This document shows, in pieces, positions 13,544 to 56,426 of a DNA stretch of 64,000 nt. Source of the DNA: Escherichia coli (GTDB lineage: Bacteria > Pseudomonadota > Gammaproteobacteria > Enterobacterales > Enterobacteriaceae); NCBI RefSeq assembly GCF_003334255.1, contig NZ_QOWU01000003.1; one strand, given 5' to 3'. The stretch's first letter is position 1, and each line of letters opens with the position of its first letter. The notes beneath the pieces are model-generated. The model saw only the letters and a program-made list of their open reading frames with translations. It had not been told where the DNA came from and did not search any database. The translations under genes were made by a program, and so were the position numbers.

Positions 13544-13744
13544 TGTAATATCCTTTCTCTTTCTTAGACAGTACCTTACGGCACTGGTGTTAATACCCGA
13601 TCTTCTGCGCATCCTCGCGACTAATGACAACCCTAACCCAGCTCTATGTGGGTAAAGCCTCTCATTAGCCGCGCGAACCTCTGCAACGGAAGATCATTCA
13701 TAGCAACAATACATTAGTTTCCAGTGAATTGCTGCCGTCAGCTT

Positions 13745-13774
13745 GAAAAAAGGGGCCACTCAGGCCCCCTTTTC
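13745..13774 (-). terminator. Rho-independent terminator after rpsO, inside the rpsO-pnp leader region
   Basis: Minus strand: GGGGGCCTGAGTGGCCCC hairpin followed by TTTTTT. Confidence 0.7.
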
Positions 13775-13789
13775 TGAAACTCGCAAGAA

Positions 13790-14155
<366 letters not shown>

Positions 14156-15553: not shown

Positions 15554-15716
15554 AATAAATTCTCCTGACAAAAAAGGGGCTGTTAGCCCCTTTTTAAAAT
15601 TAATTTCAGGTGGAAGGGCTGTTCACGTTGACCTGATAAGACGCGCCAGCGTCACATCAGGCAATCCATGCCGGATGCAGCGTAAACGCCTTATCCCGCA
15701 TGGAACCCTAAAAACC

Positions 15717-20381: not shown

Positions 20382-20405
20382 GCCCACCCCCAAGACATAA
20401 AAAAA

Positions 20406-20466
20406 GGGCCTAAAGCCCAGTTATTCTGTAGTCAGATAACAAAAAACCCCGATAAATCGGGGCTTT
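20406..20466 (-). terminator. Two tandem hairpin plus U-run structures between metY and rimP
   Basis: Minus strand: gccccgatttatcggggc followed by TTTTTT, then gggctttaggccc followed by TTTTTTT. Confidence 0.55.
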
Positions 20467-20587
20467 ATATAACTGAACCCTATAACCGCAACTGCGGTCT
20501 GGAGCACTTTCCAGAAGGATTTTTTCAAATCCCACTACGAAGGCCGAAGTCTTCACAGTATATTTGAAAAAGGACTCTAAGGGAAAG

Positions 20588-20664
<77 letters not shown>

Positions 20665-24446: not shown

Positions 24447-24533
24447 TGGTACCGAGGACGGGACTTGAACCCGTAAGCCCTATTGGGCACTACCACCTCA
24501 AGGTAGCGTGTCTACCAATTCCACCACCTCGGC
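24447..24533 (-). tRNA. leuU: tRNA-Leu (GAG), type II with long variable arm
   Basis: Minus strand reads GCCGAGGTGGTGGAATTGGTAGACACGCTACCTTGAGGTGGTAGTGCCCAATAGGGCTTACGGGTTCAAGTCCCGTCCTCGGTACCA. Confidence 0.92.
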
Positions 24534-31183: not shown

Positions 31184-31219
31184 CAAAAAAATACCGACCC
31201 GGGTACAAGTCCCAGGTCA
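31184..31219 (-). terminator. graL: Intrinsic terminator/attenuator in the greA leader (3-prime end of the GraL leader RNA)
   Basis: Minus strand: gacctgggacttgtacccgggtc hairpin followed by GGTATTTTTTT, about 95 nt upstream of the greA ATG. Confidence 0.5.
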
Positions 31220-31337
31220 GCTACAATTCACATTTTGATAGTCATTTTACCCTGAAGTTCCCGAAGGGTCATCGTTTACTTTATAGGGCGTTGCGCCGTA
31301 GTATGACGGCTCGATTCCAGGTTGTTAGCGCGAGATT

Positions 31338-49490: not shown

Positions 49491-50345
49491 ATGGTACTGA
49501 TGATCGTCAGCGGACGTTCAGGTTCAGGTAAATCTGTCGCCCTGCGTGCGCTGGAAGATATGGGTTTTTACTGCGTGGATAACCTTCCCGTAGTGTTGTT
49601 ACCCGATCTGGCTCGAACCCTGGCCGATCGCGAGATTTCTGCCGCCGTCAGCATTGATGTTCGTAATATGCCGGAGTCACCAGAAATATTCGAACAGGCG
49701 ATGAGTAACCTGCCTGACGCTTTCTCACCGCAACTCCTGTTCCTGGATGCCGACCGTAATACCTTAATTCGTCGTTACAGTGACACGCGCCGACTGCATC
49801 CGCTTTCCAGCAAAAACCTGTCGCTGGAAAGTGCTATCGACAAAGAAAGCGATTTGCTGGAGCCTCTGCGTTCGCGAGCGGATCTGATTGTCGATACCTC
49901 AGAAATGTCCGTTCACGAGCTGGCTGAAATGCTGCGTACCCGTCTGCTGGGTAAACGTGAACGCGAACTGACCATGGTCTTTGAGTCTTTCGGCTTCAAA
50001 CACGGTATCCCTATCGATGCAGATTACGTCTTTGACGTGCGCTTCTTGCCGAACCCGCACTGGGATCCGAAACTGCGTCCAATGACAGGTCTTGATAAAC
50101 CTGTCGCCGCGTTCCTCGACCGCCACACAGAAGTACACAATTTTATCTACCAGACGCGAAGCTATCTTGAGCTATGGTTACCTATGCTGGAAACCAACAA
50201 CCGTAGCTACTTGACGGTCGCCATTGGTTGTACCGGCGGGAAGCACCGTTCGGTGTATATTGCAGAGCAACTGGCAGACTACTTCCGCTCGCGCGGTAAA
50301 AACGTCCAGTCACGCCATCGTACGCTGGAAAAACGTAAACCATGA
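49491..50345 (+). CDS. rapZ: RNase adapter protein RapZ (YhbJ), 284 aa
   Basis: ORF track; Walker A GRSGSGKS. Confidence 0.93.
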
Positions 50346-50614
50346 CCGTCAAGCAAACTGTTGAAATCACAAACAAGCTGGGCATGCATGCCCGGCCTGC
50401 AATGAAGCTGTTTGAATTAATGCAGGGTTTTGACGCTGAAGTGCTCTTACGTAATGACGAAGGCACCGAGGCTGAAGCCAACAGCGTTATTGCGCTGCTG
50501 ATGTTGGATTCTGCCAAAGGACGGCAGATTGAAGTTGAAGCGACCGGTCCACAGGAAGAGGAAGCACTGGCCGCCGTTATCGCCCTCTTTAATTCTGGTT
50601 TTGATGAAGATTAA
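50342..50614 (+). CDS. npr: Nitrogen-PTS phosphocarrier NPr (PtsO), 90 aa
   Basis: ORF track; HPr-like GMHARPA active-site His; ATGA overlap with the rapZ stop. Confidence 0.93.
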
Positions 50615-50760
50615 TCTTCATCACTTTGACATACAACTCCCTTCAAACTCCCCCCGACAATAAGAAAATCACGTACTGAAATCGTTCTCAATCAACGTCA
50701 TTTGTACATTTTGTGCGCTTTTCACTTTCAGAAGAACCTTAAGAAAACCTTAAGAGGCAT

Positions 50761-50779
50761 TGTTTAGGTTTTGTTTAAG
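50761..50779 (+). promoter_or_regulatory. PhoP-box-like direct repeat upstream of yrbL
   Basis: TGTTTAggtttTGTTTAag matches (T)GTTTA-N5-(T)GTTTA, about 50 bp upstream of the yrbL ATG. Confidence 0.6.
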
Positions 50780-50827
50780 TTAATCGACCATACTGGAGAT
50801 CGTCAGAAAATATTTCCAGGAGATGGC

Positions 50828-51460
50828 ATGATTCGCTTATCTGAACAAAGTCCCCTGGGCACCGGAAGACATCGGAAATGTTATGCGCATCCGGAAGATG
50901 CCCAACGCTGTATCAAGATTGTCTACCATCGTGGCGATGGTGGCGATAAAGAGATCCGCCGTGAGTTAAAGTACTACGCGCATCTTGGTCGCCGGTTAAA
51001 AGACTGGAGTGGAATACCGCGCTATCACGGTACCGTTGAGACGGATTGCGGAACCGGTTATGTCTACGATGTGATTGCAGATTTTGACGGCAAGCCTTCC
51101 ATTACGCTGACCGAATTTGCTGAACAATGCCGTTACGAAGAAGACATTGCACAACTGCGCCAGCTACTGAAACAGCTGAAGCGTTATTTGCAGGATAACC
51201 GTATCGTGACGATGTCGCTGAAGCCGCAGAATATCCTCTGTCACCGCATCAGTGAGTCAGAGGTTATCCCGGTCGTCTGCGACAACATTGGTGAAAGCAC
51301 ATTGATTCCACTGGCGACCTGGTCGAAGTGGTGTTGTCTGCGTAAGCAAGAGCGGTTATGGAAACGATTTATCGCCCAACCGGCGCTGGCTATTGCCCTG
51401 CAGAAAGATCTGCAACCTCGTGAGAGCAAAACGCTGGCCCTCACTTCGCGCGAAGCTTAA
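50828..51460 (+). CDS. yrbL: PhoP-regulated protein YrbL (kinase-like fold), 210 aa
   Basis: ORF track 50771..51460; start trimmed to [24 protein letters not shown]. Confidence 0.82.
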
Positions 51461-52185
51461 TCCAGCTGGTGTTGTTGCATAAACGGCTCACCGCCTAACT
51501 GATACATCTGCCGTAAAATCCACGCCTGACGGCTACGCACGTAGCCCGATGGCGAGGAGACTTTGAAACGAAGTGGATTAGGTAATACAGCTGCCAGTAA
51601 TGCAGCTTCCGACCGGGTAAGTTTGCTCGCGGGTTTGTGGAAATAACGTTGTGCCGCAGCTTCGACGCCAAACACACCGTCGCCAAATTCGGCGATATTC
51701 AGGTAAACCGTCAGGATACGCTTTTTGCTCCAGACCGTTTCTATCCCCAGCGTTAATCCGGCTTCCAGCCCTTTTCGAACCCAGCTACGCCCATCCCATA
51801 AAAAGAGATTTTTGGCTGTCTGTTGAGAAATCGTTGAAGCACCGCGAATACGGTTTTCATTGCGCTCGTTGTGCGCCAGGGCTTTCTCAATGGAAGCGAC
51901 ATCAAAGCCCCAGTGCTCAGGAAATTTCTGATCTTCTGCGGCAATCACCGCCAGTCCCATCCACGGCGAGATTTGATCCATACTGACCCAGTCAGAATGT
52001 GCCACGTAACGAAAATTGCCATGCAGCCAGGCGCTGACCTGTCGCTCGACCATTACCGCTGAGAAGGGAACAGGCGCAACGCTAAACAACGCGATGCCCC
52101 CGCCCCAGAAAACGGCGAGGACAACCATTAACCGCAAAAGAAAACGGCGAACGAAACTAAACACCGTTAAGCGGCTTTTACTCAT
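51457..52185 (-). CDS. mtgA: Monofunctional peptidoglycan glycosyltransferase MtgA, 242 aa
   Basis: ORF track; GT51 motifs AAEDQKF and [12 protein letters not shown]. Confidence 0.93.
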
Positions 52186-52835
52186 TCAGCCAGAACCAGC
52201 ACGCGGGAAACCAGCTTATCAATGCCGCTCGCCGCTTCTGCAATGTTCTGCGCCAGCATATATGCTGGGGTGGTGACAATCTTATTGTCTTCATCAACCA
52301 CGATATCATCGACAGGACACGGCACATGCTCCGCGCCCATCTCTTCCAGCACTTCTGCGGTATCGATATCAGTACCGATGGTCAAACGCAGCGGGAAATC
52401 GAAAATTTTCGGCAGCATCGCCGGGGCAATACACATAAAACCAAGCGGTTTTCCGGCCTGATGCATCGCTTGTGCCAGCGCCTTTAATTCACGGTCAACG
52501 GTGCATTCGCTACCAAGACTGGCAAAATTGCTTAAATTCTTCGCCGCGCCAAACCCCCCCGGCACAATCAACGCATCCAGTTCAGCGGCATCGGCCTGGG
52601 CCAGAGGACGGATTTCACCGCGCGTTATTCGTGCCGCTTCAATCAGCACATTGCGCGTTTCCGTCATCGCTTCGCCAGTTAAATGGTTGATAACATCAAC
52701 CTGCTGCTTATCCGGTGCAAAGCAGACCGCCTGCGCACCGCTGCGTGAAATAGCTAACAACGTCAACACCGCTTCATGAATTTCAGAACCGTCATAGACG
52801 CCGCATCCGCTCAGAATTACGCCAATTTTCTTCAT
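52182..52835 (-). CDS. elbB: DJ-1/PfpI-like glyoxalase-family protein ElbB, 217 aa
   Basis: ORF track 52182..52844; start trimmed to [21 protein letters not shown]. Confidence 0.88.
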
Positions 52836-52952
52836 TGTGATCATCCTTTCGCAATTGACTGAAACACATTAATTTTTTTAATAAAAATGGTACGCATCAC
52901 ACATTTAACTGATTCATGTAACAAATCATTTAAGTTTTGCTATCTTAACTGC

Positions 52953-53073
52953 GTGCGGCCTGAAAAACAGTGCTGTGCCCTTGTAACTCATCATAATAAT
53001 TTACGGCGCAGCCAAGATTTCCCTGGTGTTGGCGCAGTATTCGCGCACCCCGGTCTAGCCGGGGTCATTTTTT
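52953..53073 (+). ncRNA. arcZ: Hfq-dependent small RNA ArcZ (SraH/RyhA), about 121 nt
   Basis: Begins GTGCGGCCTGAAAAACAGTGCTGTGCCC and ends with hairpin CACCCCGGTCTAGCCGGGGTCA followed by TTTTTT on the plus strand; the 3-prime end overlaps the arcB stop codon on the other strand. Confidence 0.8.
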
Positions 53074-55401
53074 AGTGGCTTTTGCCACCCACGCTTTCAG
53101 CACTTCTACGTCGTGACGCCACTCTTCTTTCATCTCTTCAATCCATTCACCGACGTTATCTTCCCAGGCCGGAAGGTCAGGAGACTGAATTTGCTGACCC
53201 AGCTGTTGCAGATGGCGTAACCCCACTGACCCCGCCGCACCTTTAATTTTATGTCCTTCCTCAACAATGCCTTTTTTATCCTGCGCCGTCAGATTCGACT
53301 CCAGCACGCTGACATAGCCCGGCATCATCTTCTCAAACACCGCTAACCCGTCGGTGATCAGCTTCGGTCCTACAAGTTCGAGATACTGTTCCAGCATGGG
53401 AATATCGAGCAATGCTTCTGATTTACTGTTCTCTTCTGTCGTCACCGTACTCTCCTCATCATCCTGGGTATCCCAGAATTTCTTGATCATCGCGGTTAGC
53501 GCCGGAACAGAAAGCGGCTTACTCAGCACATCATCCATTCCAGCATTGAGGTACTCTTGTTTGTCTTTCAGCACGTTAGCGGTTAAGGCCACCAGCGGCG
53601 GTAAATCCTCGCGCGGATAACGTTTCGTCAGTTCACGAGAGATATCCAGCCCGGTCATATCTGGCAACTGAATATCCAGCAACACCAGGTCGTATTCGCC
53701 CGGTTTAAACATCTCCAGCGCCGCCTTGCCGGTCATGGCGACATCAACGCTGTTACCTAATTTTTCCAGCACAGAACGCGCAACAATCACGTTCAGTTCA
53801 ATGTCTTCCACCAGCAGCACATTCAGCGCCGGTAAAGGCATATCGTCTTCATCAAACGCATCATCGACCTCTTCTGCTACCGACGGTGCGTGGATCGTCA
53901 ACGTAAAGGTTGAACCTTTGCCCTGTTCGCTGGTAACCGTAATATCGCCGCCCATATTTTTCGCCAGACGACGAGAAACGGCCAGACCAATACCGGTGCC
54001 GGTGGCAGGTTTACCGCCATGACTGTCTTTCACCTGGTAATACATGGCGAAAATTTTATCCAGCTCATCCTGCGGAATGCCGATACCAGAGTCTTCCACT
54101 TCAAAATGCAGCATATCGCCTTCATCGTAGCGCACGCGCACGGTAACCTGGCCTTGCTGGGTGAATTTGACGGCGTTACTGATGAGGTTCCACAGGATCT
54201 GCCGTAAACGCGTCCCGTCGGTAATGACCTGATGCGGTAATGGCAGCGTCGGCTCCAGGTTAAAGCGCAATCCTTTTTGTTGCGCCTGCAATGCGGAGAG
54301 ATTTTCCAGATCGGCAAGGAAGCTGGTGAAATCAACCGGTTGATTATCAAGCTGGACCTTGCGCCGTTCCATCTTATCCATGTCGATAATATCGTTAAAG
54401 ATATTCCCCAGCGTGACGGCCGAAACATGGATGGTCTTGAGATATTTTTCCTGCTCGGCGGTGAGTTCGGTATCCAGCAGAATGCGGCTCAGACCGACGA
54501 TACCGTTCAGCGGTGTACGCAATTCGTGACTGATGGTGGAGATAAACGTCGTTTTGTCGCGGCTGGCCCGTTCAAGCGCATCCTGATACCGCTTACGCTC
54601 GGTAATGTCGCGACCAAAGCCCATCAAACCGTGACGTTTACCCACGCGGTCGTAGTACGGCACTTTACGGATTTCAAAGCAGGCTTTGCGCCCGTCCGGG
54701 TAATCCAGCCACTGTTCATAGGTCAGTGACACATTATGACGGAACACTTTTTCATCGGTTTCAATGACTTTTGCGGCGGCTTCCGGTGAGTAAACATCAG
54801 CAGGTTTCAGGTGAACCAGTTGTTTTTCGCTTTTTCCGGTCAGCAGCTCCATCGCGCGGTTACAGCCGGAAAACTCTTTATCTTCGTTACGATAAAAAAC
54901 CAGGTCGGGTGAAGCATCAAGGAAGGAACGTAAGAATGAGGATTGCTGCTCGAGCTGAATTTGTGTCTCTTCGCGCTCTTTGATTTCAATTTTCAGTTGG
55001 CCGAAGGTTTCCTGCAGTTCTGCTTCCGCTTTTTCACGAACGGCAATTTCCTGATTTAGCTGGGCAATATTATCTTTTAACTGAACGTTGAGGCTCAAAT
55101 CGCGCTCGCGCATCTCCTCCAGTTTTTGCACCAGCCGTGACAGACGTTGTCGTGACTCCTCCAGTTGCTCGACGACCACCGATAGAAAGTAGACCGCCCA
55201 CGGCGTAATCAGCAAACCAAAGAAGATAGAACGAATAACATCAATGCTTTCGACCTGACCATGCAGCACCATGGTTACCGCCATTTGTACCACAATGGCA
55301 AGAACGACGAGGGCCAGCGCCAGCAACATTGAGAAGCGCACCAGACCTAACTTCATCATCAGGTCAACATAATACTGCGCCAGCAGACGAATTTGCTTCA
55401 T
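53065..55401 (-). CDS. arcB: Hybrid sensor histidine kinase ArcB, 778 aa
   Basis: ORF track; H-box ISHELRTPLN, receiver domain LLVEDIELNV...LLDIQLPDMTG, C-terminal HPt domain. Confidence 0.95.
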   Translation of the reverse strand: MKQIRLLAQYYVDLMMKLGLVRFSMLLALALVVLAIVVQMAVTMVLHGQVESIDVIRSIFFGLLITPWAVYFLSVVVEQLEESRQRLSRLVQKLEEMRERDLSLNVQLKDNIAQLNQEIAVREKAEAELQETFGQLKIEIKEREETQIQLEQQSSFLRSFLDASPDLVFYRNEDKEFSGCNRAMELLTGKSEKQLVHLKPADVYSPEAAAKVIETDEKVFRHNVSLTYEQWLDYPDGRKACFEIRKVPYYDRVGKRHGLMGFGRDITERKRYQDALERASRDKTTFISTISHELRTPLNGIVGLSRILLDTELTAEQEKYLKTIHVSAVTLGNIFNDIIDMDKMERRKVQLDNQPVDFTSFLADLENLSALQAQQKGLRFNLEPTLPLPHQVITDGTRLRQILWNLISNAVKFTQQGQVTVRVRYDEGDMLHFEVEDSGIGIPQDELDKIFAMYYQVKDSHGGKPATGTGIGLAVSRRLAKNMGGDITVTSEQGKGSTFTLTIHAPSVAEEVDDAFDEDDMPLPALNVLLVEDIELNVIVARSVLEKLGNSVDVAMTGKAALEMFKPGEYDLVLLDIQLPDMTGLDISRELTKRYPREDLPPLVALTANVLKDKQEYLNAGMDDVLSKPLSVPALTAMIKKFWDTQDDEESTVTTEENSKSEALLDIPMLEQYLELVGPKLITDGLAVFEKMMPGYVSVLESNLTAQDKKGIVEEGHKIKGAAGSVGLRHLQQLGQQIQSPDLPAWEDNVGEWIEEMKEEWRHDVEVLKAWVAKATKK

Positions 55402-55451
55402 TAGGGAATTCCTTCACGACAACCTGCCCCAATAATACCCAATTCTGACAG

Positions 55452-56426
55452 TTACGTTATAAATTGTGTGAGAAATGCGGAATTCCCCTCAACGACCCAC
55501 TCCGTTGGAGGTAGCCACGGACGTCCCAGCGCCGATCCCTGTACGCCATGTTCATTCAGATAGCGATCCAGCTCGACCATTCCCGTCCATCGATTTTCGC
55601 ACCACAGCGGAGCAAGCAGCGTCGGGCGACGGGCGCTGGCGGAAATGCGGTGGTAGATCACTTCCGGTGGCGTATGGCGAATCATTTCTCCGGCAGTGAG
55701 CGTGTAATCCTCCAGTTCAATACCGTTCAAACGCCCCGCTTCCCAGGCTTTCGCCATAATGCTGCCTTTCACAATATGCAGCGGATGCAGCTTTATGCCG
55801 TCCACGCCGGTTTCAACCACTCGCTCCAGCGTTTGCAAACATTCAGCCTGCCCTTCGCCAGGCAGGCCGACAATTAAGTGGGAACACACCTTCAGCCCGC
55901 GCTGACGTGCCAGCTGGGTTGTACGCTGATAACAGGCAAAATCATGGCCGCGGTTGATGCGATGCAGTGTTTTGTCGTGGGCGGTTTGTAGCCCCAGCTC
56001 CAGCCACACTTCGTAACCCTGGTCCTTATATTCGCAAAGCAGATCCAGCACCGCATCCGGCACGCAGTCCGGGCGGGTACCCACACACAAACCGACAATA
56101 TTGGCCTGGCTCACCGCCTGCTGATACATAGAACGCAGCACCTGAACTTCCGCAAAGGTGCTGGTATACGCCTGAAAGTAGGCCAGATAGCGTTTAGCGC
56201 GGTTAACTAAATTCGCCTGGTGCGCCAGTTGCTCGGCAATGGAACGATGCTGCTGCGCTTCATCGGCAAACGAGGCAACATTACAGAATGTGCAGCCACC
56301 ACGCCCGATGGTACCGTCACGGTTAGGGCAGCTAAAACCGCCGTGCAGCGTCAGCTTATGCACCTTTTGCCCATAACGACGGGTGAGATCACCACCAAAC
56401 ATATTGACTAATTTCTGTAACTGCAT
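55452..56426 (-). CDS. yhcC: Radical-SAM family protein YhcC (start uncertain)
   Basis: ORF track 55452..56459; TIGR01212-like; start provisionally placed at MQLQKLVNMFGG; alternative starts at the upstream ATG or at MFGG. Confidence 0.75.
   Translation of the reverse strand: MQLQKLVNMFGGDLTRRYGQKVHKLTLHGGFSCPNRDGTIGRGGCTFCNVASFADEAQQHRSIAEQLAHQANLVNRAKRYLAYFQAYTSTFAEVQVLRSMYQQAVSQANIVGLCVGTRPDCVPDAVLDLLCEYKDQGYEVWLELGLQTAHDKTLHRINRGHDFACYQRTTQLARQRGLKVCSHLIVGLPGEGQAECLQTLERVVETGVDGIKLHPLHIVKGSIMAKAWEAGRLNGIELEDYTLTAGEMIRHTPPEVIYHRISASARRPTLLAPLWCENRWTGMVELDRYLNEHGVQGSALGRPWLPPTEWVVEGNSAFLTQFIT

Follow-up and report, generated by a model that had tools for sequence, protein, structure and literature searches.

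The arcZ small RNA gene in the elbB-arcB spacer of an Escherichia coli chromosome and its 9-nt overlap with arcB

The spacer between elbB and arcB in the 64,000-nt stretch of Escherichia coli DNA that we analysed (the window) holds arcZ, the known small RNA gene also called sraH or ryhA, on a chromosome nearly identical to that of K-12; we put the probability of this reading at about 0.97. The gene ends in a Rho-independent terminator whose U-tract is, on the opposite strand, the end of the arcB coding sequence. The gene, its overlap with arcB, the processing of the RNA and the feedback between ArcZ and ArcAB have all been published already. The role of ArcZ, which ties oxygen and energy sensing by ArcAB to RpoS, motility and, in several pathogens, virulence, is thus established biology to which finding the gene again adds nothing new. 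Our modest addition is a count over 117 species, which gives the breadth of the dual coding by which the arcB stop and lysine codons double as the ArcZ U-tract.

Identity and setting of arcZ

The covariance model for ArcZ (RF00081) matches 52953..53060 with 120.8 bits, well over its gathering score of 66 and with an E-value of 3.8e-28, and the match covers the model in full, from position 1 to position 106 of 106. ArcZ is the sole Rfam family above threshold in 50000..56000 (Rfam 15), a result that was repeated by a scan of the whole window. On the plus strand, 52953..53073 is identical at 121 of 121 positions to arcZ of MG1655 (b4450); the strand starts with GTGCGGCC at 52953, or GTGCGGCCTGAAAAACAG in a longer reading, and its final bases up to 53073 are CACCCCGGTCTAGCCGGGGTCATTTTTT. 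The initial annotation had recognised ArcZ from the letters of the sequence and suggested a covariance-model search; this search yielded a single match, well above the gathering score, and together with the identity to b4450 it confirms the assignment. Nothing speaks against it.

The neighbouring genes are as expected from the earlier description of an ArcZ gene in the elbB-arcB spacer, pointing toward arcB. On one side, the ElbB profile scores 357 bits (cut-off 180), and on the other the NCBIfam equivalog for ArcB scores 1483 bits (cut-off 838); the C-terminus of ArcB reads ...AKATKK before the stop. These two matches flank arcZ, and the orientation of arcZ and arcB is convergent (Table 1). 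The MG1655 record has the same arrangement, with the ncRNA arcZ at 3350577..3350697 and arcB at 3350689..3353025, and the 9-nt overlap is found there too. The arcZ of the window agrees with the type ArcZ in sequence, in matching the whole model, in lying convergent with arcB in the spacer next to elbB, in the overlap and in the terminator. There is no difference within the gene, and a single difference, at 55498, in the 4001 bases around it that we compared with MG1655. Of 5426 complete E. coli genomes, 5417 contain the 701-bp arcZ region, 4635 of them with at least 99% identity.

The start of the unit had been set too far upstream. The initial annotation began it at 52938, which is 15 nt ahead of the annotated +1 and covers the putative extended -10, an element that is not transcribed; the unit itself is real. 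The 121-nt RNA folds with a free energy of -42.3 kcal/mol (z = -2.7 against dinucleotide shuffles).

Seven other matches to Rfam families lie elsewhere in the window: the SraG sRNA (13602..13773), the S15 leader (14003..14117), naRNA4 (15630..15700), the rimP leader (20399..20499), two tRNAs (20591..20664 and 24450..24533) and the greA leader (31186..31307). The SraG, leader, naRNA4 and tRNA matches are all expected for a K-12-like region.

Table 1 Features of the arcZ region in window coordinates.
Feature	Position	Strand	Basis
arcZ primary transcript, 121 nt	52953..53073	+	Identity to b4450, RF00081, Term-seq 3' end at window 53072
arcB CDS, 778-aa sensor histidine kinase	53065..55401	-	ORF, NF008302
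elbB CDS, 217 aa, downstream of arcB on the same strand	52182..52835	-	Profile match
Putative -35, GTAACA, 4/6 vs TTGACA, 17-bp spacer	52918..52923	+	Position relative to annotated +1 only
Putative extended -10, TGcTATCTT, -15 to -7	52938..52946	+	Position relative to +1; probable hexamer assignment
5' stem-loop, GCUGUGCC / GGCGCAGC, 8 bp	52972..53012	+	Rfam consensus structure; 5' half poorly conserved
RNase E-processed 56-nt active form with seed region (approximate)	53018..53073	+	Length from PMC11331407
Rho-independent terminator: hairpin 53047..53065, then UCAUUUUUU	53047..53073	+	Scan, fold, compensatory changes
arcZ/arcB overlap, 9 nt: arcB TGA (53065..53067) and AAA AAA Lys codons (53068..53073)	53065..53073	both	ORF and annotation

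The terminator and the 3' ends of the two genes

A strong GC hairpin followed by TTTTTT had been reported at the end of arcZ, and both a consensus scan and RNA folding recover it. The scan finds a hairpin of 8 pairs, 6 of them GC, with a 3-nt loop and the tail CATTTTTT; it is the only terminator-like site in 52780..53200, where shuffled sequences average 0.4. The same hairpin appears in both the minimum free energy and the centroid fold of the 121-nt ArcZ RNA.

The tail of this terminator overlaps the end of arcB, in agreement with the initial annotation. Read on the plus strand, the overlap is TCATTTTTT; its reverse complement, AAA AAA TGA, encodes the last two lysines of ArcB and its stop. 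The TTTTTT in it is the ArcZ U-tract, and the TCA is the complement of the arcB TGA. What arcB shares is the U-tract together with the base that closes the stem; the GC hairpin proper lies just outside the arcB coding sequence.

Published Term-seq data come from MG1655, whose arcZ is the identical sequence, and they place a strong plus-strand 3' end at MG1655 3350696, or window 53072, within the T-run (Adams et al. 2021, PMC7815308). This end is labelled arcZ / antisense to arcB and has scores of 50512 and 89663, which are two of the three arcZ entries in supplementary file 1 of that study. A plus-strand transcript does therefore end in this interval, as had been predicted.

The same study reports a plus-strand Rho-dependent region at MG1655 3351461 (about window 53837), antisense to arcB, with a Rho score of 15.2 and p = 1e-68 (PMC7815308). 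The 3'-end counts upstream and downstream of this position are 2219 and 20 in untreated cells and 3049 and 418 with bicyclomycin, where the upstream count of 2219 refers to the 800 nt before 3351461. From the 2219 versus 20 plus-strand ends without treatment, the ArcZ terminator looks efficient, so that few arcZ polymerases would enter the body of arcB. The data further suggest that Rho suppresses residual plus-strand transcription across arcB, coming either from ArcZ read-through or from internal antisense promoters.

The palindromic hairpin forms in the minus-strand RNA as well, straight after the UGA of arcB, as it would if it were a bidirectional intrinsic terminator that ended arcB just past its stop and left almost no antisense overlap between the two RNAs. 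After the minus-strand copy, however, comes UGCGCGAAUAC instead of a U-run, and the plus-strand flank ahead of the hairpin, GCGCGCA, contains no A-tract. The scan reports a terminator on the plus strand alone, and the Term-seq tables contain zero minus-strand 3' ends between MG1655 3350200 and 3350699 (PMC7815308). Pairing of ArcZ with an arcB 3' UTR is also described in the literature (PMC4281340). A bidirectional terminator would have its GC-rich hairpin between an A-tract and a T-tract, giving the RNA of either strand a U-tail; we reject this explanation on flank composition and consider it very improbable.

That arcB transcription must cross the antisense of the ArcZ terminator, another claim of the initial annotation, follows from the sequence. 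The arcB stop codon lies within the T-tract, and the minus strand shows no terminator-like site in 52780..53200. We infer that, across the arcZ antisense region, the arcB 3' UTR carries no intrinsic terminator.

Conservation of the overlap and the coupling of arcZ to arcB

Using 26 nt from the core of the conserved 3' part of ArcZ as the query, we scanned the genomes of species representatives and obtained at least 120 loci. The genera listed include Escherichia, Citrobacter, Enterobacter, Kluyvera, Yersinia, Serratia and Rahnella, along with Erwinia, Pantoea, Photorhabdus, Xenorhabdus, Proteus, Providencia and Morganella. The C-terminus of ArcB was found by tblastn and followed by a walk to the stop codon, which left 117 usable loci, and the overlap was measured from the end of the ArcZ T-run to the arcB stop. 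Among the matches listed, the overlap is 9-11 nt in 98 of 117 Enterobacterales species (9 nt in 16, 10 nt in 40 and 11 nt in 42). In all 98, the triplet right after the terminator stem, TCA or TTA, is the arcB stop (TGA or TAA), and the T-run encodes the terminal lysines. These counts agree with a 2024 review, which gives the arcZ/arcB overlap as usually ten bases and as absent in Pectobacterium carotovorum (PMC11331407).

The remaining species among the matches listed depart from this pattern to different degrees. Seven of the 117 have an overlap of 0-2 nt. In eight there is zero overlap and a gap of 4-10 nt, and those named are Pantoea or Mixta. Four give outlying values: +65 in Serratia sp. 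M24T3 (L082), +23 in Pantoea sp. 1.19 (L016), -78 in L063 and -76 in L112. These four are probably alignment-end artefacts or errors in the homopolymer length of the T-run, but may be real variants.

An alignment of 113 distinct ArcZ sequences (MAFFT) shows that nt 67-99 and the tail are invariant, with nt 69-94 fixed by the search pattern and the other invariant positions free of it, and that the 5' half is variable with many indels. Near-invariance begins at ArcZ nt 66-67, or window 53018, the expected start of the 56-nt 3' fragment. Covariation supports the terminator: in RNAalifold on the 113 sequences, two of the GC stem pairs have become AU, with both bases changed, in 22 and 20 sequences, and GU in 19 and 14. 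RNAalifold did not recover the 5' stem-loop from this alignment because the variable 5' half aligns poorly; the stem-loop is already scored by the Rfam model for ArcZ.

The triplet after the terminator stem (window 53065..53067; columns 134-136 of alignment A1) is T-[C/T]-A in 113 of 113 sequences, with the T and the A invariant. It is kept even in species, mostly Pantoea and Mixta, whose arcB stop comes 4-10 nt downstream of it and in which the triplet goes unused.

The alignment also bears on a reading of ArcZ as a dual-function RNA, in which the open frame 52887..53075 (+), of 62 codons, would encode a small protein. The frame is open across the entire ArcZ and has 40 codons from a GTG at its first base; a run of 40 codons without a stop, however, would arise by chance in about 15% of cases, (61/64)^40. 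Its stop, TAG at 53073..53075, extends beyond the 3' end of the RNA at 53072/53073. The 5' half of ArcZ is poorly conserved, with many indels, and the frame in Citrobacter (L012) meets a TAG at codon 6 (GTG CGG CCT GAA AAA TAG). With a frame that is not conserved, we judge this to be a chance ORF, and the small-protein reading is effectively refuted.

As a non-coding regulator, ArcZ is well described. It depends on Hfq, and its active form is a 3' fragment of 55-60 nt that RNase E cuts from it; transcription is highest in stationary phase, and phosphorylated ArcA represses it when oxygen is low (PMC11331407; PMC10948607). ArcZ activates rpoS by opening the leader hairpin and by counteracting Rho, and flhDC is among the targets that it represses (PMC11331407; PMC10948607). 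The ArcZ and arcB transcripts are said to lower each other (PMC11331407, PMC10948607, PMC3937726, PMC4281340, citing Mandin & Gottesman 2010). Two of these papers hold that ArcZ pairs with the 3' UTR of arcB mRNA, 6 nt of coding sequence included, and so destabilises the message (PMC4281340, PMC3937726), and three contain the speculation that arcB mRNA is an antisense RNA acting on ArcZ (PMC4281340, PMC3937726, PMC11331407).

The literature on this same sequence describes the following course of events. The arcZ gene has a promoter of its own, which ArcA-P represses under low oxygen, and the transcript stops at the intrinsic terminator. Hfq binds the RNA and RNase E trims it to the active 3' fragment of about 56 nt, which pairs in trans with mRNAs, raising rpoS translation and repressing others such as flhDC. 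The arcB mRNA, for its part, would run past its stop into the arcZ antisense, which would make the two RNAs perfectly complementary at their 3' ends. Each RNA reduces the other, closing a feedback loop between ArcAB and ArcZ. The arcB overlap and the mutual negative regulation have been described before (Argaman 2001; Mandin & Gottesman 2010; the 2024 review).

The initial annotation had gone further, seeing in the overlap a setting for mutual transcriptional interference, in which converging polymerases collide or occlude one another so that arcZ and arcB repress each other in cis. The geometry is compatible with this: it sends arcB polymerases through the ArcZ terminator, the body of arcZ and probably its promoter. 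No terminator-like site interrupts the minus strand in 52780..53200, and the minus-strand hairpin has no U-tract. The conservation of the overlap in 98 of the 117 species among the matches listed points the same way, and head-on collisions are reported to aid termination at convergent E. coli genes generally (bioRxiv 10.1101/2022.10.23.513370). That preprint, however, makes no mention of arcZ or arcB. The effect of ArcZ on arcB mRNA is described as post-transcriptional, through pairing with the 3' UTR (PMC4281340, PMC3937726), and an efficient ArcZ terminator would confine head-on encounters to the arcZ unit of about 120 bp. The published accounts ascribe the regulation to antisense pairing and mRNA destabilisation, and do not invoke polymerase interference (PMC11331407, PMC10948607, PMC4281340, PMC3937726). 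We regard mutual interference as a reasonable, unproven variant of the known regulatory link between ArcZ and arcB, and as unlikely to be a contributing mechanism.

Placement of the arcB stop and lysine codons in the U-tract (98 of 117 species among the matches listed) could also reflect selection for coupling in cis beyond pairing in trans, such that head-on polymerases or cleavage guided by ArcZ define the arcB 3' end; we think this distinctly doubtful. If it were true, the output of the ArcB sensor would be set co-transcriptionally by an sRNA promoter that ArcA itself represses.

Antisense pairing at the 3' ends, the mechanism that the published work describes, has a counterpart in GadY and gadX. 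There too an sRNA is convergent with a protein gene, is complementary to the 3' end of its mRNA and affects the stability of that mRNA (PMC4281340). The outcome is the opposite one: gadX mRNA is stabilised by GadY, and for arcB mRNA the reported effect of ArcZ is destabilisation (PMC4281340). In contrast to GadY, ArcZ is mainly trans-acting and Hfq-dependent, with many unlinked targets. By function it belongs with DsrA and RprA, rpoS-activating Hfq sRNAs that pair with the rpoS leader and open its inhibitory hairpin (PMC10948607). These two have neither sequence nor genomic context in common with ArcZ, which alone of the three is linked to, and overlaps, a gene of the system that regulates it.

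The promoter region and nearby variants

Because a simple sigma-70 scan with a threshold of 9/12 called zero promoters in 52780..53200, we placed the putative promoter elements of arcZ by their distance from the annotated +1 alone (Table 1). A mutation in the -10 has been used to knock down arcZ (PMC3937726). We also searched for ArcA boxes with a simple direct-repeat consensus (TGTTA N6 TGTTA, up to 2 mismatches), which gave none in the arcZ promoter and 47 matches across the window against 41 expected, a chance level. This search is uninformative, and the repression of arcZ by ArcA therefore rests on the literature.

C600 and other K-12 laboratory lineages carry a 768-bp IS1 in the arcZ promoter, flanked by an 8-bp target duplication, AAGTTTTG; the copy in C600 lies at about 732..1508 of locus L002. 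The insertion site corresponds to window 52932..52939, or -21 to -14 of arcZ, between the putative -35 and -10, and the insertion pushes all upstream promoter and operator DNA away from arcZ by 776 bp. The IS1-arcZ junction is found in 57 of 5426 complete E. coli genomes. Forty junction records are listed, including C600, EC600, TG1, RV308, NEB Turbo, CV601 and GM4792; among these 40 are K-12 laboratory strains and their derivatives, and we recognised no clearly unrelated lineage there. Our literature search for IS1 in the arcZ promoter found no paper that discusses it there; the ER2796 genome paper lists arcZ as missing. In these common hosts, the IS1 may alter the level of ArcZ, its control by oxygen or its control by ArcA.

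The sole difference from MG1655 in the 4 kb compared, at window 55498 (C, against T in MG1655), falls in yhcC (mnmL), whose stop codon at 55497..55499 (-), TAG in MG1655, reads TGG in the window. Without this stop the ORF runs on for 15 more codons and ends with a TAA at 55452..55454. The variant is rare: an exact 61-mer containing it is present in only 13 of 5426 complete E. coli genomes.
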